From contig AQSC01000060.1 in assembly GCA_000402775.1 (NCBI GenBank), forward strand, positions 31,780 through 95,779: a stretch of 64,000 nt of DNA. Reading direction: 5' to 3'. Under the pieces are notes generated by a model. It saw nothing but the letters and a program-made list of their open reading frames with translations, was not told the origin of the DNA and did no database searches. A program made the translations under genes and the position numbers. Below are positions 3 through 47,324 of this stretch, piece by piece. This stretch comes from Euryarchaeota archaeon SCGC AAA252-I15 (GTDB lineage: Archaea > Altiarchaeota > Altiarchaeia > IMC4 > SCGC-AAA252-I15). Position 1 is the first letter of the stretch; every line of letters begins with the position of its first letter.

Positions 3-830
3 AGGCAGGAGGATTTAACACGCAAGTCGGAAGAGACTTTCGTAAACACACTGGTCTTGCTGAATGATGAGGATCTTAAAGGTTTTTTTTCCTCGATTTT
101 GTCGGCAGCCGACGAAGACAATTCTCTGGCTCCGGCTGCAACGCATATTCTGTCAGAATTATTGCCTGAGCGCATGGAGAGTCTTGATGTGCTTTCCGAT
201 ACGCTCCTTGGGAAGTTCGCGCTCGGAGAACGAGACGACGCCGTCGTGGACTCGCTTATTAACGTGAAGATAAGGGAGGCGTTACAAGACAATACTCTTT
301 CGGATTCGACCATGTTATTTCTGGCACGTTACATGGAAAGGAGGGTTCCCGGAATGGCCGAACACTTGATCGAGCGGCTGAACTACCTGGAGCATCCGAA
401 TTCGATAGTCTGCAGTGCTCTTACCGCCTTCCACCATCCACCCGTGAACGAGCTGACTCAGCGGGGTCTTTCCGCTTCTGATTCAGATCTTTCCGCATTA
501 GGGTCCGTTCTCGCCGGTATCGGGGAGCCGGCGCTCGACGTATTAACTTACACTTTCGAGGAGGGTGTCAGGCAATTGGGGCAGAAAGCGTCCCTCCTTA
601 CCATGAGGGGATTATTCATCCCGAAAACCAGGCAGGAGACTGCAGACCCGAAAAAACGGGCTGAGCAAGAGAGGATGGAAGAGAAGCTTAGAAAATTCTG
701 GCTCGACCACGGCGCAAGCACGCTCGTGGAGGCTCAGGAATTTGAGGCCAGAGGCGGCCCTATGGCACATTCGGGCGAGCGCCTGCGAGAGCGGGCTGAA
801 AGTTTCGATCGTATGATGAATGGTCTTTGA
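3..830 (+). CDS. HEAT-like helical repeat protein, tandem family member 0 (5' end cut by window edge)
   Basis: Frame is open from nt 3 to the stop at 828-830, so the gene probably starts upstream of the window. It contains NSLAPAATHILSELLPERMESLDVL, which aligns with SLFEPAIRVLALNLADEIPDLPKVL of the downstream paralogs. The next gene starts 3 nt after the stop. Confidence 0.6.
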   Translation, partial: RQEDLTRKSEETFVNTLVLLNDEDLKGFFSSILSAADEDNSLAPAATHILSELLPERMESLDVLSDTLLGKFALGERDDAVVDSLINVKIREALQDNTLSDSTMLFLARYMERRVPGMAEHLIERLNYLEHPNSIVCSALTAFHHPPVNELTQRGLSASDSDLSALGSVLAGIGEPALDVLTYTFEEGVRQLGQKASLLTMRGLFIPKTRQETADPKKRAEQERMEEKLRKFWLDHGASTLVEAQEFEARGGPMAHSGERLRERAESFDRMMNGL

Positions 831-832
831 GT

Positions 833-2086
833 ATGCATAAGGGTTTTTTACCAAAGGATGCTGTGAAAGCGGAGATTGTCAGAAACATTGAGGTGATGTG
901 TGGTAGGGAGGATGATGCCGCCGAGGAGGCTATGGGTTTCTTAATTGGTGAGGGTGAGCACGCAGTCCCTCAATTGCTGAGGAGATACGCCTTCACGGGA
1001 TTGGGCAGTAATCCGGTAGCACATTATAGACTGTCCCAGACGGTTGCAAAAATAGGGGTTGATGGGTCGGATGCCGTAGTCGACGAGATGATTAACTGGC
1101 TTTCCCGGGACGACCAGTCGTCTAAGGCTTCGATTGCTTTAACCTTGATGTTGAAGGACGCTGAACCTGGAAGGAGGGTTAGTATCGAGGGGAAAATCAG
1201 GGGGGCTCAAGATGATCCTGGAAAGAGGGAGGCGGCGTCCCGTGCATTGGATAGGTCTGCGCACGGAGTAGGGAAGACCATTAACAGCCTTCAAACCCTT
1301 TCAGGGAATGATCTTGTGTTGGCGGTGAAGGATGTCGGGATGGTTGTGAACGAACTACTCCACTCAGACCATACTAGGGAGGCGCAGAATGCCATAAGTC
1401 ACGCCACCCGCCCACTCCTCACTGTTGTTGGTGAGGGAATGGACAAGTTGGGCTTCAGACCCAACGAAAACACACTGCAGGTCTTTAGGGAGTGGGCAAT
1501 GTTTGAGCCGGAATTCATTGCAGACCAGATAATCAAAGTCGGATCAGACTACACAGACTACTTTGAACCCGCAATACGTGTGCTTAAAATGCTTTCAAGA
1601 ACAATTGAAGGTTTTGACGAAGCTGTCGCAGACCGGCTGATATTCGACGGGAATGCAAACGACGTCGCAATGAACGGTCTGGCAGCCCTTGAAAAACCGC
1701 CTGTAGGTTATTTAATACGTAATGTGAGGGATGCTAACGACTTGCATGTTTTCGCATTGGGGGGATGTCTCAGCCACATGGGACTTAAAGGACTTAAGCC
1801 CATAACAGCGTCTTATGAAGACATGGACCCGAAGATGAAGTCGCAAAGCCTAAAGCTTTTATGGTATTTCGCAAAACGCGTGGAAACAGGCTCAGTCAAT
1901 GAGGGACAATCAGGGGAACTTAATGACATCCACCATGAACTCTGCCAGTTCTGGGAGGCTGGAGACAGCATTAAAAGCGAGGCATTCGAAAGCGGGATAA
2001 CAGAGTTTCGGGAAGCGGGTGAAAGACTTGCCGAGCTTATGGGAAAAATCGGCAAACCCGAAGGATACAATCCGATAGAGGATTAA
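833..2086 (+). CDS. HEAT-like helical repeat protein, tandem paralog 1 (uncharacterised)
   Basis: ATG at 833 (track used TTG 827). N-terminus is MHKG.., like its neighbours. HEAT/PBS-lyase-like motif AAEEAMGFLIGEGEHAVPQLL. Shared motifs RLSQTVAKIG and YFEPAIRVL. No catalytic motifs seen. Confidence 0.7.
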   Translation: MHKGFLPKDAVKAEIVRNIEVMCGREDDAAEEAMGFLIGEGEHAVPQLLRRYAFTGLGSNPVAHYRLSQTVAKIGVDGSDAVVDEMINWLSRDDQSSKASIALTLMLKDAEPGRRVSIEGKIRGAQDDPGKREAASRALDRSAHGVGKTINSLQTLSGNDLVLAVKDVGMVVNELLHSDHTREAQNAISHATRPLLTVVGEGMDKLGFRPNENTLQVFREWAMFEPEFIADQIIKVGSDYTDYFEPAIRVLKMLSRTIEGFDEAVADRLIFDGNANDVAMNGLAALEKPPVGYLIRNVRDANDLHVFALGGCLSHMGLKGLKPITASYEDMDPKMKSQSLKLLWYFAKRVETGSVNEGQSGELNDIHHELCQFWEAGDSIKSEAFESGITEFREAGERLAELMGKIGKPEGYNPIED

Positions 2087-2088
2087 GG

Positions 2089-3387
2089 ATGCATAAACAG
2101 AAGACACCTGATGATGAGTTGCGCGAAACCATTGTAGATAAGATGAGGATACTCGACGGGTCAAGGGATGGAGGATTAGTTCAGGGTGCGATGGATGATC
2201 TTGCAGGGCTTGGACCCGCCGCAGTCCAGATCATGCTTGAGGAGTACGACAATCTTTCGACGTTCAGCCACAGGTTCGGTTGGGTGAGGCTTGCAGAAGT
2301 CCTCGGGAGAATTGGATCTGATGAAGTGGTGGATCACGGACTAAAGCTCCTTGGGCAAGGAGACGACTTCCACAACGAGCCAGTTGTGAAAGGCATGCAA
2401 CTTTTAAACCATGTCTTGAAAAGCTGCAGTCCAGACAGATTCCGGCAAGTTTACGGGCGACTCGAAGAAGAGGCAGGAATGAACGAAAGCGGTGACATTC
2501 ACTCTCACTTGCACATGATTCTTATGGGTGCGAACCGAATGCGAGGTGATATGGACAGGGAGATTGACCGTTGCATCGAACAGTTGGAAGCTCCTGAGTC
2601 GAGTGATAGAGAGGATGCAATCACGACTATCACCATACACGGAAGCGAGCTACTTGACGAGCTTAAGGTAAGTGAGACTGAGGGTTTGATGGTGAAGGTA
2701 ACGCCTCCGCTTTTAAGGATTATCCACGATCGTCAGGGCGTCAAGCACGCCTTTGACTATGCAGGGGTTATGAACTGCTTTAAAGAATGGGGGGAGCATG
2801 CGGACAGGATCCAGGATTTAGGGGACCCGAAAAACGTGTTGCGGCTTAAGACCGTTGACGCGATAGTCGACCCCATAAATGCTGCGGGTGAGGGGGATGA
2901 AAGCCTTTTTGAGCCGGCGATCAGAGTCCTCGCATTGAATCTTGCTGATGAAATCCCGGATTTGCCGAAAGTACTGGTGAGGAAAATACAGGGTGAGGGA
3001 GACGTGGGTTTAGTCGCACACAACGCGCTTTTCAACATCAACCCCAAGAGAATAGTTGACTGTATTCGCACGGCCCACAAGTCGGAATTTGCGATATTAA
3101 CCGCCTCACTCGCAGATGGAGGAGAGAGGAATTGGGATGCCGCATTCGCCTACGCAAGCGAGGAGGAGCCAGAGTCTAAAGTCCGCGGCCTCGCCGTGCT
3201 CAGCGGCTTCGCAGTCCGAATAGCACACGGAAGCAGGGAACCCGAAATCCAAAGCGAACTCGCGTTAATCGAGGGAAAGATGCGGGGAGACGACATGAAA
3301 AAACTGTTGGATGCTGCTAAAGACTCTGACACCAACGAACTTCGCGAGCAGGCAACATTAATAAACTCTCTAATGAGAATAATTTGA
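2089..3387 (+). CDS. HEAT-like helical repeat protein, tandem paralog 2 (uncharacterised)
   Basis: Starts 3 nt after the upstream stop. N-terminus MHKQK. Motifs GAMDDLAGLGPAAVQIML, RLAEVLGRIGS and SLFEPAIRVLALNLADEIPDLPKVLVRKI are shared with its neighbours. Confidence 0.7.
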   Translation: MHKQKTPDDELRETIVDKMRILDGSRDGGLVQGAMDDLAGLGPAAVQIMLEEYDNLSTFSHRFGWVRLAEVLGRIGSDEVVDHGLKLLGQGDDFHNEPVVKGMQLLNHVLKSCSPDRFRQVYGRLEEEAGMNESGDIHSHLHMILMGANRMRGDMDREIDRCIEQLEAPESSDREDAITTITIHGSELLDELKVSETEGLMVKVTPPLLRIIHDRQGVKHAFDYAGVMNCFKEWGEHADRIQDLGDPKNVLRLKTVDAIVDPINAAGEGDESLFEPAIRVLALNLADEIPDLPKVLVRKIQGEGDVGLVAHNALFNINPKRIVDCIRTAHKSEFAILTASLADGGERNWDAAFAYASEEEPESKVRGLAVLSGFAVRIAHGSREPEIQSELALIEGKMRGDDMKKLLDAAKDSDTNELREQATLINSLMRII

Positions 3388-3388
3388 T

Positions 3389-4711
3389 ATGCAAAGGCAG
3401 TCTGAGAGTCCGGAAGAGAAGGAGATTGCCAGAAGGATTAATGTCTTATCCAAGAATCCGGATTACTCGCAGGAAGTTACTCGCGAGCAGTGGAGCGCGG
3501 CCGAAAAGTTTTTGAGAGCCCAGGGTGAGCGGGCGCTGCCGCAGGTGTGCGATTATTATGGGCGGACCACTGACAGCGACACGTGCGTGTTCGCGTTCGC
3601 GCGAGTCCTCGGGGACATTGCAGCCAACGGTAGCGAGGAGGCAGCCGACCAGGTGGTGGACCTCGGGCTCTCGCTCATTACAGGGGATTTCCACGACGAA
3701 CCGAAGGGGCAGAACATATTGCAGTCAGTACTCATGGAATGCAAGGACCCCGACCGTAGAAGACATCTTATCGCGCGAATGCGCGCAGCTAAAAACTCCG
3801 ACGAACCGGTTAGCGAGACTCGGGAAAGCCTCGTAAGCTATGTCGTAGGCTCCGAGGCCATGCATCCTGGCGGAGGAGAGGAAGACCTCAACACACTCTT
3901 CGAAAACCTGGAATCCCCTGATTCAAACATCCACGGGACGGCAGCAAGCCAGCTTGCAGTGCGGGTCGGAGGCGAACTGGATGAAGGAAACGTTTCCGCT
4001 GCGAGAGACATGCTTGAGAGGGGAACCCCGACGCTGCTCAAAATCATCGGACAGTCAGCGCATGTACGAGCCCAGCTCACTTTAGCCCACGGAATGGGTT
4101 TTTACGATGAGATGGGTTTGAGTATCGAGCGCATGAACGATCCCGACTTAAAGATCCGAGCGACTGACGCGCTGGTATCTGAGACTGCGAAGGCGGTAAG
4201 AGCGGACGAAAGCTTAAGTGATGCGGGAGTCCGCGCACTCTCCTTTGCCGTGGCCGGGCGCGTGGAAGGCCTTCCAAAGCTTCTCGCGCGGAGGATACTC
4301 TTGGAATTGGAAGAGGAAGATCCGGAATTCTTTGCTCAGTGCCTTTACAACATAAATACTCCGCAGCTTGTAAGAAACGGGCTTAGCGCAGACCAATACG
4401 AGATTACAGTATTAACAAGCATTATAGGCTTTAAAGGAGATGAACCTTTGACCGAAATCTTGAATGCTGGTGAATCCGAACCCGCGGTAAAGTGCCTTAG
4501 AAGGCTTGCCTTGATTGGGTCGGTGGCTTATGAAACCTACACGAAAATCTCAGAGAGGGTAGACTTAGAAGAGTCTGGGATACTGCGCGAAAGGCTTTTG
4601 GGTGGGGAGGTTGATCAATATCTCGCCAAAGCCCGGGAATCGGGTGACCCCACCGTAGACCAGCAAGTCGCCGAAGTCCGGCATGCACTACAACTTTTAA
4701 AGGATGCTTGA
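3389..4711 (+). CDS. HEAT-like helical repeat protein, tandem paralog 3 (uncharacterised)
   Basis: Starts 2 nt after the upstream stop. N-terminus MQRQ. Motifs AAEKFLRAQGERALPQV, FARVLGDIA, LESPDSNIHGTAASQLA and SLSDAGVRALSFAVAGRVEGLPKLLARRI. Confidence 0.7.
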   Translation: MQRQSESPEEKEIARRINVLSKNPDYSQEVTREQWSAAEKFLRAQGERALPQVCDYYGRTTDSDTCVFAFARVLGDIAANGSEEAADQVVDLGLSLITGDFHDEPKGQNILQSVLMECKDPDRRRHLIARMRAAKNSDEPVSETRESLVSYVVGSEAMHPGGGEEDLNTLFENLESPDSNIHGTAASQLAVRVGGELDEGNVSAARDMLERGTPTLLKIIGQSAHVRAQLTLAHGMGFYDEMGLSIERMNDPDLKIRATDALVSETAKAVRADESLSDAGVRALSFAVAGRVEGLPKLLARRILLELEEEDPEFFAQCLYNINTPQLVRNGLSADQYEITVLTSIIGFKGDEPLTEILNAGESEPAVKCLRRLALIGSVAYETYTKISERVDLEESGILRERLLGGEVDQYLAKARESGDPTVDQQVAEVRHALQLLKDA

Positions 4712-4712
4712 A

Positions 4713-6032
4713 ATGCAAAAACAGGAGCCTAAACCACCGGATGAGGGATTGACCGTCGCGAAAGCGGTGGAAAAGCTCGTTAAAGCGCTGGACAGGGAGG
4801 ATGTGTCAGCCGAGATGACGTATCTCACAACCCAGGGTCCCGCAGCAGTACCCGCGCTTGGGGAAGCACTTAAAGAAGAAGCAGGTTTTCAGGGCTCGTC
4901 GATGGGAAGGCTCGCCGAAGCTCTCGCCCGGATAGCATCGGAAGGAAGCAACGAGCCAATCGATCTCATGCTCGACTGGATGGGAAGGGACATAACAGAC
5001 TTATACGACCGCGACTCAAAAAGCGGCTACTGGTATGCGATTTTCTCCGGTGTATGCAGTAATCCCGCGCGGAAGCGCGAAGTCTTGCAGAGGATGGGGG
5101 AGGCTAGAAACGATGCAGACCACCCTTACAGAGAGCTTACTGCAGGAAACCTCATCGCATACGAGAACGTGACGGAAAGAGATAGTGGGGAAGGCCCTGA
5201 CGAAGCTGCGGAACAAATGCTTACCTCAGATTCACCTCAACAAAAATTCCCGGCAATAGAAGCGTTCACACACATAACAAAAGAACAGATTAGTGGTGGA
5301 AGAGTAAGCGAAGCCAGAGAGACTCTCGCAAAGGCAGCGCCCGCCATGCTCCAGACCGTGGCTGATTACGTTAAAACCGACAAGCCGACGCTTGAGATGG
5401 GCGGGTCAGTGGTAGGATTCACAGAACTCGCCCAAGAAGCGGCGAAACTACCGCAGCCGGAGTGCTTTCACGCGCTCGGGATGATAGCAGACTGCATCCT
5501 AGATGCGGCACACGAAAACCCCGAGCTCGCAGACCCTGCGGCAAGGGTGCTCGGACGCGTGATTCCGGCGGAAGTCCCGGGTTTTGGGAAAACACTCGTC
5601 ACGAAAGTGGCGGGCGAAGACGAGAAAAGCCCGGTGGCGTTGACGGCGCTCGCAGTCATGAAACCGGAGCAGCTTATCGGATGCGCCAACATAGCACACA
5701 TGACGGAGATGACGCTCATCGGAACCGCCCTCCACCTGCAGGGGCCTAATGCTTTCCTCTTGCTGGTGCATGAAATCGATTCGGGAGATCGGGAGCGCGT
5801 CGTCAAGGGCCTGACTCTAATGGCTGGTGTAGCTCGACACTTGCACGATCCCGAAAGAAACCCCGAACGCGTTTTAGACAACCAGGGGACATACGATTTT
5901 CTTTTGGGGGGTGATATGGTTCAACATTTATCAGCCATAAGAAGTCCCGACGATGAAGGTCTAAATCATCACATTGACTTGTTCGAAAACATGTTAGACG
6001 AGTTAAGGCAAATGGGCCCGCCAGGCTCGTGA
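4713..6032 (+). CDS. HEAT-like helical repeat protein, tandem paralog 4 (uncharacterised)
   Basis: ATG 4713 gives MQKQ, consistent with the sibling N-termini; the alternative ATG 4704 overlaps the upstream stop. Motifs YLTTQGPAAVPALGEAL, RLAEALARIAS and ELADPAARVLGRVIPAEVPGFGKTLVTKV. Confidence 0.7.
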   Translation: MQKQEPKPPDEGLTVAKAVEKLVKALDREDVSAEMTYLTTQGPAAVPALGEALKEEAGFQGSSMGRLAEALARIASEGSNEPIDLMLDWMGRDITDLYDRDSKSGYWYAIFSGVCSNPARKREVLQRMGEARNDADHPYRELTAGNLIAYENVTERDSGEGPDEAAEQMLTSDSPQQKFPAIEAFTHITKEQISGGRVSEARETLAKAAPAMLQTVADYVKTDKPTLEMGGSVVGFTELAQEAAKLPQPECFHALGMIADCILDAAHENPELADPAARVLGRVIPAEVPGFGKTLVTKVAGEDEKSPVALTALAVMKPEQLIGCANIAHMTEMTLIGTALHLQGPNAFLLLVHEIDSGDRERVVKGLTLMAGVARHLHDPERNPERVLDNQGTYDFLLGGDMVQHLSAIRSPDDEGLNHHIDLFENMLDELRQMGPPGS

Positions 6033-6066
6033 GGAATTTTAATACCTGTTCTGTGATTACTTTACC

Positions 6067-6969
6067 ATGTCTGACGTTGATATTGTGGCGGAAAGCATTC
6101 GGAGCATGAAGGTTCGGGGTGCTCGAGACATCGCAGTCGCCGCAGCCCTTGCACTCAAGAAAATAGTGGATGAAGGAGGTAAGATACCGGAACTTGAACC
6201 TGCCGGCGAAAAACTCAAGGCTGCAAGGCCTAGCGCGATAGCACTTCCCAACGCCGTAAACTACGTCATGTATCTAGCCGACGGAAACAAAAGCTTGTCC
6301 GATGAGGAATTCAAGGAAAAGACCATGAAGGATATCGACGGATTCCTCGATCAGATGGCCAAGTCGGTGAAAAAAATCGCGGAAATCGGAGCTGAAATAA
6401 TAAGGGAGGGGGAGACTCTTCTCACCCACTGTCAGAGTGACACCGTCTTTGAGATATTTTCGAAAGCGTGGGACGACGGGAAAAAAATCAAGGTCGTGTG
6501 CACTGAAGCACGGCCCAGACACCAAGGATACTTGACCGCCAGGAAATGCTCGGAACACGGGATTCCGACAACACTCGTGATTGATTCAGCAGTCCACTGG
6601 GCGATTCGCGAGCTTGACGTAGACAAGATTTTCGTGGGAGCCGACACGGTTTGCGCGAACGGCGACGTCGTAAACAAGGTGGGGACGAGCCAGATCGCGT
6701 TGTGCGCTGACGAGGCAGACATCGACTTTTTCGTCGCAGCCGACTCGCTAAAATTTTCCGCGGAAAGCATGATGGGAAGGATGGTGAACATTGAGGAGAG
6801 GGATACTTCAGAAGTCACAGAGATTCCTAACGTAACTATTCGAAACCCCGGCTTCGACGTGACCGAAGCCAAATACATCGACGCAATCATAACCGAAGAA
6901 GGAATCATGCCGCCGCAAGGAGCTTACCCGCTTCTCAAGGAAAAATACGGTTGGGAGCTTAAAGGTTGA
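6067..6969 (+). CDS. eIF-2B alpha/beta/delta-family protein (archaeal e2b2 type; candidate ribose-1,5-bisphosphate isomerase)
   Basis: 300 aa with family-typical regions VRGARDIAVAAA, GADTVCANGDVVNKVGT and RNPGFDVT. The subfamily (R15P isomerase versus aIF-2B) cannot be resolved by eye. Confidence 0.7.
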   Translation: MSDVDIVAESIRSMKVRGARDIAVAAALALKKIVDEGGKIPELEPAGEKLKAARPSAIALPNAVNYVMYLADGNKSLSDEEFKEKTMKDIDGFLDQMAKSVKKIAEIGAEIIREGETLLTHCQSDTVFEIFSKAWDDGKKIKVVCTEARPRHQGYLTARKCSEHGIPTTLVIDSAVHWAIRELDVDKIFVGADTVCANGDVVNKVGTSQIALCADEADIDFFVAADSLKFSAESMMGRMVNIEERDTSEVTEIPNVTIRNPGFDVTEAKYIDAIITEEGIMPPQGAYPLLKEKYGWELKG

Positions 6970-14906: not shown

Positions 14907-17582
14907 ATGAGTCTTAAAGGCCTTGAAAAGATATTCTCCCCTAAGACGGTTGCCGTGATAGGCGCAAGCAACCAAGAAGGAAGCGTGGGCTACTCGATCA
15001 TGGCAAACCTGTTAGGCCACGGATTCGAGGGCACGGTCTATCCCGTCAACCCTAAGAGGGAGAGCGTTCAGGGAGTCCACGCCTACAAGTCCATCGGTGA
15101 AGTCCCAAGGAGGGTGGATTTGGCAGTAGTGGCAACGCCCGCCAAAACAGTGCCGAAAGTCGTGGAAGAATGCGGTAAGGCGGGTGTTAAGGGGCTTGTC
15201 GTAATATCCTCGGGTTTTAAGGAAGCGGGAGAGGAAGGTAGTAAACTCGAATCCGAAATCGGGGAAATCCTGAAAAAATACCAGATGCGGCTTGTAGGGC
15301 CGAACTGCCTGGGAGTCATAAACCCCCGCCTAAAACTAAACGCAAGCTTCGCGATAAAGATGCCCCGGGAGGGAAACATCGCCTTCATATCCCAGAGCGG
15401 GGCGATATGCTCCGCGATAATAGACTGGGCCGACGAAAAGAACATCGGATTCAGCTACTTTATATCGATAGGCTCCATGCTCGACGTCGACTTCGGGGAT
15501 TTAATAGACTTCTTCGGATATGATGCGAAAACTCAAAGCATTGTCATATACATGGAGTCGCTTAAAAACGCGAAAAAATTCATGAGTGCTGCAAGCGGTT
15601 TCGCAAGGAAAAAACCGATCATTGTTGTCAAGTCGGGCCGTTTCGAAGAGGGTAGGAAGGCTGTCATCTCCCACACGGGTGCTATCGCAGGCATGGATGA
15701 AGTGTACTCCGCTGCTTTCAAGCGTGCGGGCGTGGTGAGGGTGAAGGAGGTGTCCGACCTGTTTGAGAACTCCGAGAAACTTGCCATGGGTCCCCTCCCC
15801 AAAGGCCCGAACATAGCAGTCATCACAAACGCGGGTGGGCCGGGAGTCATGGCAGCAGACAAGATAATGGAGCTTGGAGGTGCGCTTGCCCCGATTTCAG
15901 ACGACACTGTGAGGAAGCTTAGTGAGAGACTTCATAAAAACTGGAGTAAAGGCAATCCCATCGACGTTTTGGGGGATGCTGGCCCTGAAGAATACGGGAG
16001 TGCAATTTCAGCCGTAATCGAGGATGATAGTGTAGACGGAATAGTGGTTATCTTAACTCCTCAGGCGGGGACGGATCCAGAGGAGGTGGCTAAATCGGTT
16101 ATTGATGCGTGGAAGGGCTCGAAAAAGCCCATAACATCCTGCTGGATGGGTGGGGGGAGTATTCATAAGGCTTCCGAGCTTTTGCTTGCGAGTCGGATAC
16201 CAACCTACCAGACGCCAGAGCAGGCGGTGAAACCCCTGCTTCACGGATTCGAGTATTATCATAACTTAAAGCTTTTGCATGAGACTCCGAGGGAGTTGAG
16301 CAATGGTTTGAACCCTGACCGAGGAATGCTTTCAAGGCTTGTTAAACAGCACGTGAAAAAGGGTGAGCTTGTTTTGTGCGAGAGGGATTCTAAGGAGTTC
16401 GTCAGGGAATATGGTATACCCACGACCAGGATGATTCTTGCCAAGACAAAAAAGGAGGCTGTTGAGGCTGCCGAGAAGATAGGCTATCCCGTGGTCGCAA
16501 AGATTGAATCCCCAGACATAACCCATAAGACCGATGCTGGCGGCGTGGTTTTAAGCATTCTTTCCTCAAGGGAGGTTGAGGAGGCGTTCGACAGGATTAA
16601 GTTGAATGCCAGAAAATTCAACCCAAAGGCGAGGATTAACGGCGTGACGGTCTGCAAAATGATCCAGAAGCGCGGCTTCGAGCTTCTTTTAGGCGCCAAG
16701 CGTGACGAAATCTTCGGGGAGGTGATAGTCTTCGGAGCTGGAGGCACGTTAGTCGACGTTTTAGGAGACAAGGGCATCGGGCTGCCACCTTTAAACCAGA
16801 CGCTTGCAAGACGCATGATGGAGGAGACGAAAAGCTACAGGCTTCTTAAGAACGGTTCGAGGGATCGTCCTCCCGCAAATTTGATCGAGATCGAAAAGGC
16901 CATAGTTAATTTCTCGCAGATGATCGTGGAAAACCCCGAGATAATTGAAGTAGACTTGAATCCTCTACTGGCCACTCCAGAAGGCGTCGTCGCCCTAGAC
17001 GCCCGAATCATACTCGACGAGAAAAAAGCTTTAAAGTCACCAAACCACCTTTGCATAACCCCATACCCTACAGACCTCACCGAGGAATGGAAGACCAAGA
17101 CTGGGGAGCCCATAACGCTTCGACCGATTAAGGCGGAAGACGAGTACAAGCTTAAAGAACTTTTCGAATCCCTAACCGAGAAGACTGTGAGATTCAGGTT
17201 CTTCCACCCTATAAAGGAGATGACCCACGAAATGCTCGTCAGGTACTGCCACAACGACTACGACAGGGAGCTAGCTATCGTCGCGGAAAATCACGGCCGG
17301 ATCATGGGAGTAAGCAGGCTCATGCTCGATCCGGGGGAAAAGACTGCTGAATTTGCGGTCGTCGTCACTGATTCATGGCAGAACAAGGGTCTCGGCTCCA
17401 AACTCGTCTCCAAGATGATTGAGATAGCCTTAATGAAGGACCTTACGAAGGTTTATGCAACGGTCATCAAGGAGAACATTGTAATGACCCACCTTGCGAA
17501 AAAAATGGGTTTCACGGTCGAGGACAGTGAGGATGAGGACATATACAATCTTGCGCTTTACTTGAAGGGTGGTGGGAGATGA
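14907..17582 (+). CDS. ADP-forming acetyl-CoA synthetase (alpha-beta fused) with C-terminal GNAT acetyltransferase domain (Pat-like)
   Basis: 891 aa. Domains in order: CoA-binding N-terminus (VAVIGASN), a succinyl-CoA-synthetase-like flavodoxin domain with the SHTGAIAG loop, an ATP-grasp (YGIPT..GYPVVAKI), and a GNAT (VVVTDSWQNKGLGSKL). Confidence 0.85.
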   Translation: MSLKGLEKIFSPKTVAVIGASNQEGSVGYSIMANLLGHGFEGTVYPVNPKRESVQGVHAYKSIGEVPRRVDLAVVATPAKTVPKVVEECGKAGVKGLVVISSGFKEAGEEGSKLESEIGEILKKYQMRLVGPNCLGVINPRLKLNASFAIKMPREGNIAFISQSGAICSAIIDWADEKNIGFSYFISIGSMLDVDFGDLIDFFGYDAKTQSIVIYMESLKNAKKFMSAASGFARKKPIIVVKSGRFEEGRKAVISHTGAIAGMDEVYSAAFKRAGVVRVKEVSDLFENSEKLAMGPLPKGPNIAVITNAGGPGVMAADKIMELGGALAPISDDTVRKLSERLHKNWSKGNPIDVLGDAGPEEYGSAISAVIEDDSVDGIVVILTPQAGTDPEEVAKSVIDAWKGSKKPITSCWMGGGSIHKASELLLASRIPTYQTPEQAVKPLLHGFEYYHNLKLLHETPRELSNGLNPDRGMLSRLVKQHVKKGELVLCERDSKEFVREYGIPTTRMILAKTKKEAVEAAEKIGYPVVAKIESPDITHKTDAGGVVLSILSSREVEEAFDRIKLNARKFNPKARINGVTVCKMIQKRGFELLLGAKRDEIFGEVIVFGAGGTLVDVLGDKGIGLPPLNQTLARRMMEETKSYRLLKNGSRDRPPANLIEIEKAIVNFSQMIVENPEIIEVDLNPLLATPEGVVALDARIILDEKKALKSPNHLCITPYPTDLTEEWKTKTGEPITLRPIKAEDEYKLKELFESLTEKTVRFRFFHPIKEMTHEMLVRYCHNDYDRELAIVAENHGRIMGVSRLMLDPGEKTAEFAVVVTDSWQNKGLGSKLVSKMIEIALMKDLTKVYATVIKENIVMTHLAKKMGFTVEDSEDEDIYNLALYLKGGGR

Positions 17583-18679
17583 ACACGGGTATCGTATTCC
17601 ACAACGAGTATTTAAAGCACAAGCAGATTGAAAACCACCCGGAAAACCCGCAAAGACTTGAAACAACCATGGAGTATTTCTTGAAAACACAAATACTAGA
17701 CGTCGTCGAACAGTTAAATCCAGAGCCCGCTTCATTGGAGGATTTGGAGAGAGTCCACTCTAAAGCGCACGTCCAGCACATCAAGAGTCTGAGCGAGATG
17801 GGTCACGGACGCTTCGGAGTTATCGACTCCGACACTTACGTGTGCGAGCACACTTACTCGGCGGCGCTTCTTGCCGCCGGCGGCGTCATGGCAGCTGGCG
17901 AGGCGGTTTGGAAGGGCGAGTTGGACAACTGCTTTGCATTAGTCAGGCCTCCCGGACACCATGCATCCAAGAACCAGGCGACTGGATTCTGCTACTTCGA
18001 CAACATCTCCATCATGGTGAAGTACCTTCAAGCCAGACACAATGTTAAGAAAGTGTTCATTTTCGACTGGGACGCCCACGCCCCGAACGGGACGATGGGC
18101 ACATTTTACACAGACCCCGGCGTCTTGAACATGTCAATCCACCAGGATCCGCGCAATTTCTACCCGGGACACGGCTTCATAGACCAGATGGGTGAGGAGG
18201 CTGGCAGGGGCTACACCATAAACTTTCCCGTGCCGGCGGGCACAGGAGATGCAGACTACCTACACTTTCTTAATGAATTCGTAGTCCCGAGAGTCAGGAA
18301 ATTCAAGCCTGATTTAATAGCGGTCGCAGCAGGCCAGGACTCACATATAAGCGACCTCATATCCCAGTTGAACGTGACGGATGCGGGATACGCCTCGATG
18401 ACAAAAACCCTGATGGATCTTGCCGACGAAGTCTGCAAGGGAAAACTCGTCCTCGAACTTGAGGGAGGCTACAACCTTAAGACTCTTCCAGCCACAAACC
18501 ACAAAATCCTTTCGACTTTGACTGGCATCCCGCCTGAAAAGGAGATTGAGGGAAAGATACTAGAGTCGACGAGAACACTGCTACAAAAACTTAACGACTC
18601 ATTGAAGTCGAGCAAGCTCTGGCAGGAAGGGCCCGACCCAGTTGAAGCGGACGTGCCGTGTGAAGAAAAGCAGAAATGA
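17579..18679 (+). CDS. Histone deacetylase-family (class II HDAC/AcuC-like) deacetylase
   Basis: Motifs RPPGHHA, FDWDAHAPNG and LEGGYN. ATGA overlap with the upstream gene. Confidence 0.85.
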   Translation: MNTGIVFHNEYLKHKQIENHPENPQRLETTMEYFLKTQILDVVEQLNPEPASLEDLERVHSKAHVQHIKSLSEMGHGRFGVIDSDTYVCEHTYSAALLAAGGVMAAGEAVWKGELDNCFALVRPPGHHASKNQATGFCYFDNISIMVKYLQARHNVKKVFIFDWDAHAPNGTMGTFYTDPGVLNMSIHQDPRNFYPGHGFIDQMGEEAGRGYTINFPVPAGTGDADYLHFLNEFVVPRVRKFKPDLIAVAAGQDSHISDLISQLNVTDAGYASMTKTLMDLADEVCKGKLVLELEGGYNLKTLPATNHKILSTLTGIPPEKEIEGKILESTRTLLQKLNDSLKSSKLWQEGPDPVEADVPCEEKQK

Positions 18680-40066: not shown

Positions 40067-41115
40067 CTGACCAGACGGAAATACTAGAAGGACTTCGAAA
40101 TGATGACCTATTAAAGTGGGCGGAGGCCGCGGTAGCGGCAAAGAAACTCGCAGAGAATGAGAGCCTGACTATCGATGTTCTTCGCGAACTTGTCGCAAGA
40201 CGTGAGGAAATGGCGCCTTTTCCAGGCAATGACAGATATCTTGTTACGGAAGGCCACGCCGCTTTAGATGCCTTATCAAAGGCTGCTAGCCATCAAGAGC
40301 TTCCTGAAGGGGAGATTCTATCTCCCATACTTGATACTCTTGCAGGCCCTCCAGGAAATCCAGATTCAAGGTATGACGATGATATAACCCGCAGGTATTG
40401 CGCCGCAATTTTCATAAACAGGATGGCCAGTCAAAAGCTCTCCCAGACAACACTTGAACGGCTTGCGTGGGTTATGGGAACCCAAGAAGTAAAGGAGAAA
40501 AGAGATGCTCAAGGAAGACAGATTCCAGGTCCAGATGGGCAGCCTGAGATGGATTATATTCTACTAGACGGGGATCCCGACTTTGAGGCTGACAGGCTTG
40601 TCGCAAATGGGTTTGAAAACGGGGCCGAGCTCCAGGATTTTGAGGGGCCTATTATGGACAGACTGATTGATGTTTCACATAGGGGTAGATCTCATACAGC
40701 ACCAACTATTACTAAAACCCTTAAAATTTATGGGGCCAGTCACCCGCTACCGGATAGGATTTTAAATAAGTGGGGTGCTTGGCTTAAACACGGAATAGAC
40801 TCTGTTAAGGGATCTGGATTAAGCCATCTTCACTCAGTAGCCGGTGCGAACACTTTTTCGGATGAGATTTTAGCGGATGCCGCAAGCCTTCTTGGAAGCG
40901 AAGAAGAAGTCTTCGAGTTTGCGGAATTCCAGCCGTTGGGGGCTGTGGCAGAACAATTTTTAGTAAAGTACGGCCAAAACCATCCCGCTGAAGTGTGGGC
41001 TGCCGTGGGGGCGGTCGCACAGGCGGCTGAGGGTCCGGAAAATCAGGCGCTTTCAGAGCGGGCTTCTAGGATTTTGGAAGTTGTAAAGCCTCCTCAAAGG
41101 AAGTTGAAACAATGA
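40063..41115 (+). CDS. Hypothetical helical protein (350 aa)
   Basis: ATGA overlaps at both ends. Ala/Leu/Glu-rich, probably alpha-helical repeat. No enzyme motifs. Confidence 0.55.
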   Translation: MTDQTEILEGLRNDDLLKWAEAAVAAKKLAENESLTIDVLRELVARREEMAPFPGNDRYLVTEGHAALDALSKAASHQELPEGEILSPILDTLAGPPGNPDSRYDDDITRRYCAAIFINRMASQKLSQTTLERLAWVMGTQEVKEKRDAQGRQIPGPDGQPEMDYILLDGDPDFEADRLVANGFENGAELQDFEGPIMDRLIDVSHRGRSHTAPTITKTLKIYGASHPLPDRILNKWGAWLKHGIDSVKGSGLSHLHSVAGANTFSDEILADAASLLGSEEEVFEFAEFQPLGAVAEQFLVKYGQNHPAEVWAAVGAVAQAAEGPENQALSERASRILEVVKPPQRKLKQ

Positions 41116-42524
41116 GTTATTCCGAGGGAAAACTAGACGTCCCACATGCAGCATTAGTCATTGTCGTGCTAGCCTACACGTTCTTCTTCGTGTATTCACC
41201 CCACCTTGAATACGATTTTCCATTCCACGTCGACGAGTGGAGGCACATCACCGAAGCAAGGCGGGTAATTGACGGTTCATACCATCCCGCGCTTGAAGTG
41301 GGATTCCACATCTTCCTCGCACTCCTTTACAAAACCACGGATTTGGTTTTAATTTACAGATTCCTGCCCGCAGTTTTCGCATGCATCTCCTCAATAGTAC
41401 TTTTCTACACGACACTCAAGCTTTCCAAAAACTATAGCATATCAGTCCTCTCAATGGTTTTTTTCACATCCATAAAATCCAACGTAAACATCACGGGCAT
41501 GTGGTTTTTCACACCGCTAACTTTTAGCATACCATTAATCTACCTTTTCGCCTGGCTTTACAGTGAAGCAGTATCCAAAGACGACGTAAGAAAACTACTC
41601 TTAAGCTTCCTTGTATACCTTACGATCGCCTTCTTCCACATAATCTCTGCGACATTTCTGATCCCCGCAATAATATTATATTCTCTATTAAACCGCAAGT
41701 TCTTCATTAAACACTGGAAGACAAGCGCCATCGCACTACTAATCCCCATCGCAACCTACATTGCCTTCACAAGCGTTTTGAACGTCGACATACCCAAAGA
41801 CCCCAACCAAACACAGCTCATCTTCAAACACGGATGGGGAATCTATGAAATAGACCTTCCAATAATCCACGGATACTCCCACATAGCCGCACTACTCGCA
41901 GTACTGGGAATCCCAATCGCGTACAAAAAACGGCAACACCTCCACCTCTTATGGATGCTCACAACACTCACCGCAGTCTACGCTTTCCCGCATCTAGGAT
42001 ACAGCGTATTCGCCCCGTACCAGAGAAACTACTACTACTTCCTCTTAAGCCTACCCTTGCTTAGCGCATACGGAACTAACACGCTCTACGGTTTCATAAA
42101 GTCAAGGATTAAAAATGAAAATAAAACCCTCATAGTATTTTCGATCATGATGATCCTAGCCCTCACATTCACCTTCAAAGACTACTGGAGCCTGCCCGGC
42201 GACGTCAAAATCTACCAGCTCATAGACGAAAATGATTATCAAGCCTTAAAATTCCTCGAATCAATCGACCAATCCGATTCGAAAGTCATGGCCGACTCCA
42301 GAAAATCCATGGCAGTATACCCAGTATCAGGCCACGAGATCGTAGGTGGATTCTTCTTCTGGGGCAATAAAGACGACACCGAAAGATTCTTCAAAGAAAA
42401 CTGCACGATAAAACAGGATTTAATAAAGAAACATGCCGTAAGATATATACTCTCGAAGGAACCGCTAGACTGCGAGTGGGAGACAATATACAACAAAGAA
42501 AATTTCATCTACAATATCCAGTAA
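41112..42524 (+). CDS. Polytopic membrane protein, GT-C-like putative glycosyltransferase
   Basis: 470 aa with about 11 TM segments, an acidic first-loop motif (FHVDEWRH) and a ~120-aa C-terminal soluble domain. Lies directly upstream of the glycosyltransferase genes. Confidence 0.45.
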   Translation: MSYSEGKLDVPHAALVIVVLAYTFFFVYSPHLEYDFPFHVDEWRHITEARRVIDGSYHPALEVGFHIFLALLYKTTDLVLIYRFLPAVFACISSIVLFYTTLKLSKNYSISVLSMVFFTSIKSNVNITGMWFFTPLTFSIPLIYLFAWLYSEAVSKDDVRKLLLSFLVYLTIAFFHIISATFLIPAIILYSLLNRKFFIKHWKTSAIALLIPIATYIAFTSVLNVDIPKDPNQTQLIFKHGWGIYEIDLPIIHGYSHIAALLAVLGIPIAYKKRQHLHLLWMLTTLTAVYAFPHLGYSVFAPYQRNYYYFLLSLPLLSAYGTNTLYGFIKSRIKNENKTLIVFSIMMILALTFTFKDYWSLPGDVKIYQLIDENDYQALKFLESIDQSDSKVMADSRKSMAVYPVSGHEIVGGFFFWGNKDDTERFFKENCTIKQDLIKKHAVRYILSKEPLDCEWETIYNKENFIYNIQ

Positions 42525-42547
42525 AAAACAAGGGGAAAAGGGATAAA

Positions 42548-44371
42548 GTGGACGCACTCGAATTCATGCTAAGAATAATAGGAACAATCCTCTTCTTCAC
42601 GCCAGGAATCCTCATAAGCTACCTCACATTCAAAAAAACAAACCTAACCGAACGAACCGCATACTCCATCGTCTTTACTGCTGCTTACTCAGCCATTTTG
42701 GGACTGATACTTGCAATTTTCAAGGTTTTCACCATCAAATCCATGATCGTAACGATTGTTTGCCTAAATACTTTTTTGTTTCTGCTCATTCGAAAATTAA
42801 AACGTAAATACACTTTCGCCACCTGTAAGGTTGATAAAAAATTTATTTTTTTGATTTTTATAACTCTCCTTGGAGTTATTTGGAGATTATTTTTCAGATT
42901 AAAAGTCAACGCCTGGGGTGATGGGTATCATCATGTGGGTATTCTACTTGAAAGAGAATTAAGTGAAAGCAATAGCCTTTCAATATCCTTACCTGACTTG
43001 AATTTTTATACGGGTATGGCAGTGAATAAAGGTAGTTTCTTAGGAGGGCAATTATCCTCCATGATTTTTGACTCGTTATCTTTTAATTCTGATTTTATTA
43101 AAATTCCGTTATCTGTTTTTTTATTGTGTAGTTTTACTTACATTGTTGTAAAAAAGTATACTCATAGAAGGGACTTGGCAGTATTTGGATCAGTTGTAAT
43201 GGCTATTGGTCCTGTTGAAATATGGCAAAACACTCTAGGATTTCTAGGAGGGGATTTAGCTTATATTTCGTTAATATCACTATTCATTTATTTTAAAACT
43301 AAGGTCCGAGGGTATTCGTGGCTTGTATTTTTCCTCGCGATAACTATGATGATTAGTTATTACACGCCTACCGTCGTAATGGTTATCTCATCAGCGGGAT
43401 TTATACTTGCACTTGTATTAAAACAAATATTTGAAAAGAGAAACACATTCAGGATTACGTTTGGCATTATATTCAACAAAAAGATTTGGGTGTATTCAAT
43501 AATATTAGTTGTATTATCATCTTTTCTATTGAACTTTTCTAGTGAAGGGATCACCCAATATTCAATAGAAACTTTTAAAGAGACAACTAAGTATACAGTT
43601 GAAAAAGCAAAATCTGAAATTTCAGATTCCGAGAAAGAGGTCAAAAAAGATATCTCAACTGTTAAACCACCAAAACCTTATAAGTCTAATATCAGATTTC
43701 TAGGTTTACCCGTAATAAGCTGGCAAGACCTATATTTCACACTCTTAGGCTTTACTTTTATTTTTCACTTAATTTTCGGGAAGAAGAGTCAAATTGAATA
43801 CGACATTTTTTTAGCTGGAATACCCGCTGTAATGCTAGCTCTTGCATTTTACAATGTGAATATGCCTGAGAGGGCCTTTTCATATCTCGCTTTTTTCGGA
43901 ATACTCACAGCTAAAATCCCAAAAAAACTCTTTAAAATTTTCACGGTTTTGTCTATCATTTTCCTTTTAACTACGAGTCACATTGTCGCAAGCGAGAGAA
44001 TAAAATTCTTCAATAATTCCCCTGGAGAAATCGAAGCTGCTAGATGGGTGAAAAGTAACTTAAATGGGATACTATTAAGTGATGAACGATTTATTAGCCT
44101 CCTTGTCATTGAAGATTACAATAAGGTAAACGGATTCGAAGATGATTCAAAATATATGAGTCCAACATATTACGAATCAAATGTGGAAAATGCGAAAATC
44201 GTATTTGAACAGAATAACGTAGAGTATTTTGCATCCTCCAAGCGTATGAGGGAGGAGTATATATTAATGTTGAATTTCCCTCAGGAGCCTATGACAAACA
44301 TACGAATGTATGAACGGAATTTCCGGCTCATATTCGACAACGGCGACGTGAGGATTTATAAAATCAAATAG
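42548..44371 (+). CDS. Polytopic membrane protein, GT-C-like putative glycosyltransferase (second copy, AT-rich)
   Basis: GTG 42548 (or ATG 42566), preceded by aagggga. Many TM segments, a loop motif AWGDGYHH, and a C-terminal soluble domain ending ..DNGDVRIYKIK, similar in layout to the 41112 protein. Confidence 0.45.
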   Translation: MDALEFMLRIIGTILFFTPGILISYLTFKKTNLTERTAYSIVFTAAYSAILGLILAIFKVFTIKSMIVTIVCLNTFLFLLIRKLKRKYTFATCKVDKKFIFLIFITLLGVIWRLFFRLKVNAWGDGYHHVGILLERELSESNSLSISLPDLNFYTGMAVNKGSFLGGQLSSMIFDSLSFNSDFIKIPLSVFLLCSFTYIVVKKYTHRRDLAVFGSVVMAIGPVEIWQNTLGFLGGDLAYISLISLFIYFKTKVRGYSWLVFFLAITMMISYYTPTVVMVISSAGFILALVLKQIFEKRNTFRITFGIIFNKKIWVYSIILVVLSSFLLNFSSEGITQYSIETFKETTKYTVEKAKSEISDSEKEVKKDISTVKPPKPYKSNIRFLGLPVISWQDLYFTLLGFTFIFHLIFGKKSQIEYDIFLAGIPAVMLALAFYNVNMPERAFSYLAFFGILTAKIPKKLFKIFTVLSIIFLLTTSHIVASERIKFFNNSPGEIEAARWVKSNLNGILLSDERFISLLVIEDYNKVNGFEDDSKYMSPTYYESNVENAKIVFEQNNVEYFASSKRMREEYILMLNFPQEPMTNIRMYERNFRLIFDNGDVRIYKIK

Positions 44372-44378
44372 GAAAAAT

Positions 44379-45365
44379 ATGAGAATGAGTGTTTTGTTCT
44401 TGTCTCATAATCCGCATGAAGTCCACCTCAATTTCGCAAGGGCGGTTGGTGCTCGGGTGGAGGTTCTCCCCTTTGACGAGAGTGTCAGAAGGGGTAAGCA
44501 CCATCCAGCGTTTAAGCTACTACACCCCCTACAATCATTTCTATATAGTAAAAAACTGAAAGTAAAAGAGGATGTTTTACTTGTTGACGGAGGGTCATCG
44601 ATTTTTACTGCCGCATTCTTGAAGATGAGATATAAGCACTTAAAATTGGTTTATATCGACGGAGACTTGTTCATCCTGACATTAAGTAAAAATAATTTTC
44701 TGACAAAGATTGTGAAAAAATTTTTCTTGAAAAGAATCGATGCAATAATCTCTGTATCCGAAATGAATAAGGATGAAGCCTCAAAATATTTAACCGTTCC
44801 AATTGAAGTCGCCGAACCCTACCCTCAACCTGTATGTCAGAATAAAAACGGAAGGAAAAATTATGGATTATATGTTGGAAGGTTAGATCCTGACAAGAAT
44901 ATCGACCGAATCATAGATTTCGGACTCAAATCCCCTTTCCTTGAGAAATTCATTGTTGTCGGAGAGGGTACATTAAGCGATTACATAAAAGAAAAGGCTA
45001 GTGTAAACAAAAAACTTGTGTATGTGGGGGAAACTGGTAATATTTCAAAATATTATTCTGAATGCAAATTCCTAGTCCATTTACCCGACTTCGACCCACA
45101 CCCATGCACAACAATGGAGGCAGCGGAATGCGGTTGTTATCCCATAATTTCAGAGGGAGTTGGTTCAAAATACCTTTTCGACGAAATGTTTATCGTCAAT
45201 GCAAACGATTTTGATGAAGTGAACGACAAGATTGATTATATCTTAAAACATGATGTTGAAGTGAAGAAATCGTTGGAAAAAACTGTTGAAAAAATCCCAT
45301 CTAAAAGTGATTCGATTAAAAAGTTCAAACTCAAGTTTGATACAGTTATGGGTGAGATCACATGA
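44379..45365 (+). CDS. Glycosyltransferase (GT-B fold, GT4-like)
   Basis: 328 aa. C-terminal half has FVGRLDPDKNI-type (YVGRLDPDKNI) and E....E(A)..G motifs (TTMEAAECGCYPI). Confidence 0.6.
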   Translation: MRMSVLFLSHNPHEVHLNFARAVGARVEVLPFDESVRRGKHHPAFKLLHPLQSFLYSKKLKVKEDVLLVDGGSSIFTAAFLKMRYKHLKLVYIDGDLFILTLSKNNFLTKIVKKFFLKRIDAIISVSEMNKDEASKYLTVPIEVAEPYPQPVCQNKNGRKNYGLYVGRLDPDKNIDRIIDFGLKSPFLEKFIVVGEGTLSDYIKEKASVNKKLVYVGETGNISKYYSECKFLVHLPDFDPHPCTTMEAAECGCYPIISEGVGSKYLFDEMFIVNANDFDEVNDKIDYILKHDVEVKKSLEKTVEKIPSKSDSIKKFKLKFDTVMGEIT

Positions 45366-46444: not shown

Positions 46445-46457
46445 ATGTTATTGAAAG

Positions 46458-47324
46458 ATGGCTGAAAAAACAAACGAAAACCCTCTTGTTTCAGTAGTAA
46501 TCCCGGTTTACAATGGAGAGAAAACATTAAAAGAGTGTTTAGACTCTGTAGTCAACCAGACTTACGAAAACTATGAGGTTATTGTAGTCGACAATAATTC
46601 CACCGACTCGACAAAAGAAATCATCAGTCAATACGAGAAGGCCAAATATGTTTTTGAAGGAAAACCAGGAAGAGGAGCAGCCAGAAACGCAGGAATAGAT
46701 AATTCTCACGGGGAGATTATCGCAATGATTGATTGTGATTGTGTCGCAGAGGAAAACTGGCTGGAAGAATTGATTATGCCGATAATTTATAAAAAAGAGG
46801 ATGTGGTTCAGGGTTCGGAAATAAATTCAGACGATAATTTCTGGCAAAACAAAATCCAAAAAGCCAATGAAGGATTCATTGAACGGCATAGGATGGGGGA
46901 TTATTTAACTTCATTAGACTCTAAAAATTTTGCGATCAAAACAGATCTCGCAAGAGATTTGATGTTCGATCCAGAAGCGATTGTCTTTGAAGACTTTGAA
47001 TTCTATATTCGCCTTAGAAAAGTAGTAAAAATCCGATTCCTCCCTGAAGTCAAGGTTAAACACTACCATAAAAGCTCTCTATCAAGCACAATTAATATGA
47101 ATTTTGACAGGGCTCAAGGAACCATCAGAATATGGAAAAAATACCGGAAAGACCTTGGGGGTGAACCCATGACAGAAAGTATCTCATTGAAGAACCTAGT
47201 GATATTTCCGTTTTGGATGGCACTACAATTTATTAAACAACCAATAGGAGATTGCGTCTACCTAATGGTGTCCGAGCTTTCCTGGCGTTTTGGTTTGTTG
47301 TGGGGTTTTGTTAAGTGGCGTTAA
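46458..47324 (+). CDS. Glycosyltransferase family 2
   Basis: VSVVIPVYNGEKTLKECLDSVVNQTY, VVDNNSTD and DCDC (DXD-like). Confidence 0.85.
   Translation: MAEKTNENPLVSVVIPVYNGEKTLKECLDSVVNQTYENYEVIVVDNNSTDSTKEIISQYEKAKYVFEGKPGRGAARNAGIDNSHGEIIAMIDCDCVAEENWLEELIMPIIYKKEDVVQGSEINSDDNFWQNKIQKANEGFIERHRMGDYLTSLDSKNFAIKTDLARDLMFDPEAIVFEDFEFYIRLRKVVKIRFLPEVKVKHYHKSSLSSTINMNFDRAQGTIRIWKKYRKDLGGEPMTESISLKNLVIFPFWMALQFIKQPIGDCVYLMVSELSWRFGLLWGFVKWR

Follow-up and report, generated by a model that had tools for sequence, protein, structure and literature searches.

The first 6 kilobases (kb) of the window, a 64-kb stretch of contig AQSC01000060.1 from Euryarchaeota archaeon SCGC AAA252-I15, hold five genes (g0 to g4) lying head to tail on one strand. 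They encode divergent paralogs of a new, unnamed protein family of a well-known fold, whose members are predicted to be HEAT-like (PBS/alphaRep-type) all-α solenoids. The array sits as a variable insert between a pair of conserved genes that are transcribed divergently and encode the N-terminal half of RqcH (RqcH-N) and ribose-1,5-bisphosphate (R15P) isomerase; this slot carries zero, one, two or five family genes in related genomes. Taken together, our data make it probable that g0–g4 constitute a single operon, co-expressed and translationally coupled, whose products are non-enzymatic and subfunctionalised HEAT-solenoid binding proteins.

The original prediction had described this array, from the DNA alone, as five coupled paralogs of an uncharacterised helical protein. 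Our open reading frame (ORF) scan returned identical positions for all five same-strand genes, with no internal stops, a stop codon closing every ORF, and stop-to-ATG spacings of 2, 2, 1 and 1 nucleotides (nt) across g0–g4. The sequence strings reported for a shared N-terminal block and a shared central block were recovered exactly on re-search in eight of eight cases (four of each), and a further RL-A/S-E block and four similar N-termini are readable in the translations. The gene cut by the window edge, g0, is complete in contig L002, where the full unit comprises exactly five genes and the g0 product measures 357–362 amino acids (aa; P0005/P0026). Its start is probably MEKQEMGDG, a sequence similar to the MQKQE and MHKQK starts of the paralogs. 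The g0 protein is shorter than its paralogs, and the family alignment places the missing stretch mid-protein. No further family copy was found elsewhere in the 64-kb window, and g3 is represented by a single sequence across eight public contigs.

The relationship between the five proteins was assessed by all-against-all alignment, as had been proposed with the original prediction. Pairwise BLASTP alignments, mostly full length, give 23–28% identity, with E-values (computed at a database size of 1e6) of 1e-26 for g2–g3, 2e-19 for g2–g4, 5e-14 for g1–g2, 7e-14 for g3–g4 and 4e-8 for g0–g1; over the set as a whole, identity spans 18–28%. Moreover, an independent family hidden Markov model (HMM), built from 11 distant members with the window genes left out, scores g2 at 3e-43, g1 at 2e-34, g4 at 2e-27, g3 at 2e-15 and g0 at 5e-12, whereas none of 1,038 shuffled controls exceeds 7.8 bits. 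Both measures lie far beyond chance and establish the five genes as divergent paralogs.

The opening codons of all five genes are near-identical and A-rich (ATG-CAT/CAA/GAA-AAG/AAA/AGG-..., giving MHK, MQK, MQR or MEK), at window positions 833–845, 2089–2100, 3389–3400 and 4713–4725 and at L002 5519–5533. These starts are conserved at the DNA level despite roughly 25% protein identity elsewhere, and may represent a translation-initiation or re-initiation context. Shine–Dalgarno-like sequences are also present, GAGGA upstream of the g2 start and AAGGA upstream of the g4 start.

Structural prediction supports the description of these proteins as HEAT-like and helical. AlphaFold2 models of g2 and g4 are all-helical solenoids of 23 and 22 helices, with predicted local distance difference test (pLDDT) scores of 84.8 and 85.2 and, for g4, a predicted template modelling score (pTM) of 0.79. 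When searched against the PDB with Foldseek, both models match ARM/HEAT solenoids exclusively (E 1e-6 to 1e-4, probability 1.0), among them designed ARM proteins, importin-α, importin-β, CAND1, β-catenin and the PP2A A subunit. At the sequence level, a profile of 18 family members matches alphaRep-7 (4zv6_A) in the PDB at E 6.6e-8, in three stretches that keep a 31-residue repeat register, and other alphaReps score between 2e-3 and 2e-2; g2 alone finds no match in the PDB sequence search, and the family profile is needed to reach alphaRep. The alphaReps are artificial proteins whose design began with Mth187 and drew on thermostable HEAT-like repeats (PMC3754942). In an exhaustive search with the family (see below), the only out-of-family matches are P0023 and P0024, which are genuine multi-HEAT/PBS repeat proteins. 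The Pfam HEAT models (HEAT_2, HEAT_PBS and HEAT_EZ) match none of the five window proteins at E ≤ 1, and among the 18 members their best scores, E 0.021 for HEAT_2 and E 0.024 for HEAT_EZ in two members each, stay below the gathering threshold.

The 18-sequence alignment features a set of family motifs (WLG, ND..HP.R, TP.LL, F..WA..PD, AL.N.G, GL.LL..FA and SGD). Its sole invariant residue is the initiator Met; no polar or catalytic-type residue is invariant, in agreement with the earlier remark that no catalytic motif is visible. The five proteins are acidic (isoelectric point, pI, 4.7–5.1), have a negative grand average of hydropathy (GRAVY) and polar N-termini, and are most likely cytoplasmic. 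Scans of all five against Pfam and NCBIfam returned nothing at threshold, and no defence-system model in PADLOC-DB v2 matches any of them at E ≤ 0.1. Public copies are named 'hypothetical protein', and a literature search for Altiarchaeota together with HEAT repeats found no paper. The outcomes that would have counted against the original prediction have not emerged: the proteins fall into no well-characterised family with an assigned role, their similarity is statistically significant, and the array is not a common, already annotated feature of the lineage.

To place the array in its genomic context we turned to L002, which is identical to the window across most of the shared 8.8 kb (98.4% overall) and shows what lies upstream of position 1, a point raised in the earlier analysis: g0 comes first, and beyond it stands a divergent RqcH-N gene. 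The full order in L002 is a minus-strand RqcH-N gene, a 35-nt spacer, g0, g1–g4, a 34-nt spacer, the R15P isomerase gene and a CorA gene. The RqcH-N gene encodes 378 aa and matches the N-terminal half of archaeal RqcH (positions 1–371 of 645). The 35-nt divergent spacer, AGTTTATATCTTTTGAGGCCCATTTTTATTAAATC, contains TTTATAT and, on the opposite strand, TTTAATAAAAA, each approximately 26 nt from its respective ATG. Archaeal promoter architecture is the basis for reading TATA-like boxes at this distance from an ATG, and the pair fits back-to-back promoters that would give rise to leaderless mRNAs. At the other end of the array, the T-run and the TATA-like box in the g4–isomerase spacer suggest that the array is probably a transcription unit of its own, with this spacer as its probable 3′ limit. 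In the mechanism that we propose, one TATA-box promoter in the divergent spacer would drive a joint, leaderless mRNA of all five genes, and g1–g4 would be translated by termination–reinitiation coupling across the 1–2-nt junctions.

The RqcH/NFACT gene beside the slot consists of the N-terminal half alone (378–387 aa) in every Altiarchaeota locus seen, including L002 (4347–5483), L017 (8803–9966) and L019 (8820–9965), in each case on the minus strand. It scores 287 bits against an NCBIfam cutoff of 400.

A scan of genome contigs with g2 peptides gave no match; related loci were reached with the R15P isomerase as an anchor, and reveal how variable the slot is. Loci L017/L018, whose isomerase is 75% identical to that of the window, and L019 (isomerase 62% identical) carry no family gene, as confirmed by the family HMM, and their flanking genes are direct neighbors, 34–35 nt apart. 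A single family gene occupies the slot in L008 (P0007; isomerase 64% identical) and in L009/L010 (P0008; 72%). Two are found in L012/L013, the GTDB representative metagenome-assembled genome (MAG) GCA_043823295.1 (95%), namely a g0 ortholog and an in-frame hybrid. The full five are present in the window and in L001 and L002, which belong to the same strain.

The hybrid of this sister species, P0006 (MFH1835746.1; L012/L013 5545–6234 on JBDRAY010000093.1), comprises 229 aa and joins g1 aa 1–76 in frame to g4 aa ~287–439, marking a deletion of the intervening segment with a junction microhomology of about 2 nt. The deletion is carried by a single assembly. An assembly artefact was considered and judged unlikely, given the short (~2 nt) microhomology, the lack of long k-mers shared between g1 and g4, and the in-frame fusion.

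The recurrence of the order RqcH-N(−), family member(s)(+), isomerase(+) in the window lineage, L012, L008 and L009, with 26–34 nt separating the last family gene from the isomerase, could be taken to mean that these proteins are accessory factors of RqcH-type ribosome rescue or of nucleotide salvage through R15P isomerase. We consider this very unlikely. In L017/L018 and L019 the two flanks remain adjacent and divergent with nothing between them, which identifies the neighborhood as backbone synteny and not as evidence of shared function; more distant family members reside in unrelated contexts, and the TATA-like box in the g4–isomerase spacer suggests that the isomerase has a separate promoter. 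The empty slots of L017–L019 essentially refute a functional link to either neighbor.

The family as a whole is rare. Among 1.84 billion representative proteins, searched exhaustively with HMMER, there are only 24 hits, which include four orthologs of g1–g4, one full-length g0, the hybrid and about 15 genuine distant members; the family amounts to about 20 sequence clusters. A word-indexed search of a 5.8-billion protein collection returned just one 93% ortholog, and two proteins when a profile was used. Every source name recovered for the family is 'hypothetical protein', and its named members are Altiarchaeota, with one distant member deriving from a Candidatus Altiarchaeota MAG. The best named homologs of the isomerase, from 76% down to approximately 50% identity, all belong to Candidatus Altiarchaeota or Altiarchaeales, which identifies the window as Altiarchaeota chromosomal DNA. 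The remainder of the window is ordinary housekeeping DNA, and Rfam matches nothing within it. Viral relatives were sought in BFVD, which gave no match at E ≤ 1e-3, and in IMG/VR, which holds no relative; these nulls rule out a viral origin of the array.

In base composition, no other 6-kb stretch of the window is as GC-rich as the array (0.523, the median being 0.477), in line with earlier spot counts of 43/60 and 31/60, both of which proved exact. The excess sits in codon position 1 (0.58–0.64), and GC at the third codon position (GC3; 0.52–0.58) resembles that of the neighboring genes (0.49–0.64). The enrichment therefore reflects amino-acid composition, the proteins being rich in Ala, Gly, Asp, Glu and Val, and not foreign DNA; the normal GC3 and the position-1 excess rule out horizontal transfer as its source.

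To date the duplications we compared the paralogs with the single-copy members. In a neighbor-joining tree, g3 is sister to P0008 of L009 with 100% bootstrap support, and BLAST bit scores are 143 for g3–P0008 versus 107 for g3–g2. Ten distant members form a clade of 100% support, outside which the window paralogs, P0007 and P0008 all fall. The grouping of g3 with P0008 implies that the duplication took place, at least in part, before the L009 lineage split off, and evolution after duplication is dominated by loss. Against orthologous arrays, the ratio of nonsynonymous to synonymous substitution rates (dN/dS) is 0.18 for g0, 0.24–0.29 for g1 and 0.38 for both g2 and the C-terminal part of g4, with g3 left out since its orthologs are identical; the flanking genes give 0.18 (isomerase) and 0.08 (CorA). 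These values indicate purifying, comparatively relaxed selection on the four genes compared (for g4, on its C-terminal part). The tree and the overall dN/dS range of 0.18–0.39 together uphold the earlier suggestion of an old duplication that has been retained. Protein divergence of the family runs about 4–5 times faster than that of its flanks: between the window and L012, RqcH-N is 96%, the isomerase 95% and g0 80% identical, and between the window and L009 the corresponding values are 55% and 72%, with 25% for g3/P0008.

Such loss and relaxed constraint could also be the signature of a largely neutral by-product of tandem duplication, in which a dispensable gene exists in redundant copies that are drifting apart and disappearing, and multiplicity carries no distinct function. 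Three and a half genes are gone from the sister species, several relatives are devoid of any copy, dN/dS values of 0.24–0.39 exceed those of CorA and the isomerase, and g0 lacks its mid-protein stretch. Yet all five ORFs are intact in several independent assemblies, the duplications are older than the L009 split with all copies kept, dN/dS is far below 1 in each testable copy, both modelled paralogs (g2 and g4) yield confident, complete solenoids, and the tight 1–2-nt junctions have been preserved. We regard neutral decay as improbable.

Further analysis revealed that part of the array exists in two allelic forms. Compared with L001 and L002, tract 1 (see table) shows 141 differences in 642 nt (22%), with no indels and 55% of the differences at third codon positions, and a second, shorter tract lies further into g2; outside both tracts, the window differs from L001/L002 at 0–1 positions over about 10 kb. 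Public g2 alleles display all four combinations of two modules, aa 5–76 and aa ~243–305. Several contigs from independent samples end inside 1409–2080, a pattern to be expected if alleles that co-exist break up the assembly graph. These patterns suggest that the tracts are old, purified alleles recombining in a near-clonal background. At the nucleotide level, the alternative tract 1 allele resembles no other part of the array, which rules out that this tract arose through gene conversion from a paralog. Some of the apparent mosaicism could stem from chimeric consensus assembly; the dimorphism itself recurs in several datasets.

Table. Features of the paralog array and its right-hand boundary, in window coordinates
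Feature	Position	Strand	Description
g0	3–830	+	First array gene; 5′ end cut by the window edge
g1	833–2086	+	417-aa paralog, predicted HEAT-like solenoid; ATG 2 nt past the g0 stop
g2	2089–3387	+	432-aa paralog; ATG 2 nt past the g1 stop; GAGGA 8–9 nt upstream
g3	3389–4711	+	440-aa paralog; ATG 1 nt past the g2 stop
g4	4713–6032	+	439-aa paralog; ATG 1 nt past the g3 stop; carries the canonical family motif RNDADHPYRE
Segment absent from sister-species MAG L012	1063–5570	+	4.5-kb deletion
Tract 1	1675–2316	+	g1 aa 281–417, g1/g2 junction and g2 aa 1–76
Tract 2	2837–2973	+	g2 aa 250–295; 17 differences (12%), relative to L001 only
g4–isomerase spacer	6033–6066	+	34 nt; T-run, and TATA-like ATTTTAATA roughly 26 nt ahead of the isomerase ATG
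R15P isomerase	6067–6969	+	TIGR00511 (315.3 bits; cutoff 314.1); bounds the variable slot on the right; outside the family

The same allelic diversity invites a different explanation, in which the genes would make up a module for conflict or recognition, with fast-evolving binders (sensors, decoys or immunity-like proteins) directed at viral, mobile-element or competitor proteins, whose copy number and alleles are kept diverse by balancing or diversifying selection. This would accommodate the patchy, accessory distribution of the family (24 hits in 1.84 billion proteins, with the slot empty in close relatives), the 0, 1, 2 or 5 copies in one slot, and a protein divergence 4–5 times that of the flanks (80% identity for g0 against 95–96%, and 25% for g3/P0008 against 55–72%). 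It would also accommodate a dN/dS above that of CorA and R15P isomerase, and the sharply bounded tracts of 22% and 12% divergence in an otherwise identical background, with four g2 allele combinations. Moreover, one distant member, P0012, adjoins a SUKH/SMI1 immunity-type gene, and tandem arrays of divergent immunity paralogs are reportedly known in polymorphic-toxin systems. However, PADLOC yields no match, neither the operon nor its immediate surroundings hold a nuclease, toxin, ATPase or other effector, the genes on either side serve housekeeping functions, the viral searches above gave no homologs, and other family members sit in ordinary housekeeping contexts. The dN/dS values, well below 1, and the 55% share of third-position differences point to purified old alleles rather than ongoing positive selection. 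The rapid divergence is also less telling for a protein of this kind, as HEAT solenoids in general evolve fast, their hydrophobic repeat pattern alone being constrained. A conflict module is thus unlikely. A narrower version, an archaeal 'recognition panel' of five diversified HEAT-solenoid binders kept polymorphic by conflict with viruses, mobile elements or competing strains, would amount to a defence- or immunity-like system that lacks a recognisable effector; it is consistent with the copy-number series, the mosaic g1/g2 alleles and the 4–5-fold flank divergence, and seems to us rather unlikely still.

We therefore return to the operon of co-expressed solenoid paralogs as the preferred reading. 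HEAT and ARM proteins serve as protein-binding scaffolds or adaptors, and this is the basis for the step from solenoid to scaffold: the predicted fold and the lack of catalytic motifs suggest that the products would act as non-enzymatic, subfunctionalised protein-binding scaffolds or adaptors. They may either form a hetero-oligomeric solenoid assembly or make up a panel of adaptors with different partners. Distant family members are single genes in unrelated housekeeping contexts, with the exception of L015, which features a tandem pair of divergent members (P0018 and P0014, 24% identical). This pair, along with the long retention of all five genes, would favor cooperation between paralogs. 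Several observations weigh against the preferred reading. The scaffold role is deduced from fold and missing motifs alone, and the Foldseek template modelling (TM) scores are low (0.2–0.35), so that they set the fold class and single out no specific relative. The sister species has dropped the segment running from the C-terminal part of g1 through g2 and g3 to the N-terminal part of g4, keeping g0 and the hybrid, and the full set is accordingly not essential. Most family members are single-copy, and an obligate hetero-oligomer cannot be the ancestral mode. Finally, the two L015 genes lie 164 nt apart and are not coupled.

Downstream of P0014 in L015 (Altiarchaeota MAG GCA_042584505.1, 2182–4854) lie five small ORFs in succession on the same strand, of 173, 143, 135, 122 and 135 aa, none with a Pfam match. 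This run may be another paralog array.

Elsewhere in the window, a region of low GC (42000–47300; 0.36–0.37 against about 0.48) contains three glycosyltransferase genes (44379–45365, 45362–46444 and 46458–47324), preceded by two large ORFs without a Pfam match (41112–42524 and 42476–44371). The second of these has a pI of 9.6 and a positive GRAVY, and probably encodes a membrane protein. The region is a typical variable surface-glycan island. Positions 14907–18679 include an 891-aa ORF with CoA-binding, succinyl-CoA-ligase-like, ATP-grasp and C-terminal GNAT domains, the architecture of a Pat-like protein acetyltransferase. The stop of this ORF and the start of a histone-deacetylase-family gene overlap, a feature that suggests a possible acetylation/deacetylation pair, and a gene for the RNA cyclase RtcA follows. 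Two acidic ORFs probably encode surface or secreted proteins: one of 1114 aa with a VWA domain on the minus strand (53591–56935), and one of 923 aa with FG-GAP/β-propeller repeats on the plus strand (58031–60802).

These data delineate a protein family that had no name and has no entry in Pfam or NCBIfam. Its named members belong to Altiarchaeota, an uncultured phylum of importance to carbon cycling in the subsurface and in anoxic lakes. They also document a natural series of gain and loss at one chromosomal slot, with 0, 1, 2 and 5 copies, a 4.5-kb deletion whose bounds are mapped, and dimorphic alleles that recombine. Should the five proteins form a joint assembly, they would represent a rare prokaryotic multi-paralog HEAT scaffold, comparable to the HEAT/ARM machines of eukaryotes; if they are diversifying binders, they would represent a new kind of archaeal conflict system, in a phylum where such systems are hardly explored. 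The fold is familiar, and the immediate value lies in annotation and in use as a population-genetic marker rather than in any mechanistic surprise.

Comparison with known systems places the array among several partial counterparts. The eukaryotic ARM/HEAT scaffolds (importin-α, β-catenin, the PP2A A subunit and CAND1) are non-enzymatic, protein-binding solenoids of similar length and helix count, but TM-scores of 0.2–0.35 and identities of 9–15% amount to a resemblance of fold class and provide no evidence for a specific homology or for partners in common. The PBS-type HEAT-like proteins of archaea and bacteria related to Mth187, and the alphaReps derived from them, share with the family an all-α solenoid of ~31-residue helical hairpins and, through Mth187, an archaeal origin (PMC3754942). 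The family profile aligns in register with the alphaRep pattern a..AL..iG(d).a(i/v).pLi..l.d.d at the E-value of 6.6e-8 given above. The family nevertheless differs from these proteins in that no member reaches a Pfam HEAT threshold (best E 0.02, in 2 of 18), in its repeats, which are degenerate and irregular, above all in the N-terminal half, and in being a distinct orthologous family with a fixed length of about 400–450 aa and motifs of its own (WLG, ND..HP.R, F..WA..PD and SGD). Polyimmunity loci of polymorphic-toxin systems resemble the array in being tandem sets of divergent paralogs encoding small, non-enzymatic binders that evolve rapidly and vary in copy number from strain to strain, whereas the array has no toxin gene or Pfam immunity domain in or beside it and is flanked by housekeeping genes. 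The phycobiliprotein lyase CpcE/CpcF is a heterodimer of PBS-type HEAT-like paralogs encoded by adjacent genes, and offers a precedent for neighboring HEAT-like paralogs that form a hetero-complex. It is a cyanobacterial system of two genes, not five, devoted to chromophore attachment, whereas the host of the array is a non-photosynthetic archaeon; HEAT_PBS (PF03130) matches neither the window proteins nor the 18 members, and the genomic context is RqcH-N and the isomerase rather than phycobiliprotein genes. Set beside these systems, a tandem-paralog operon of this kind is unusual but not unprecedented.

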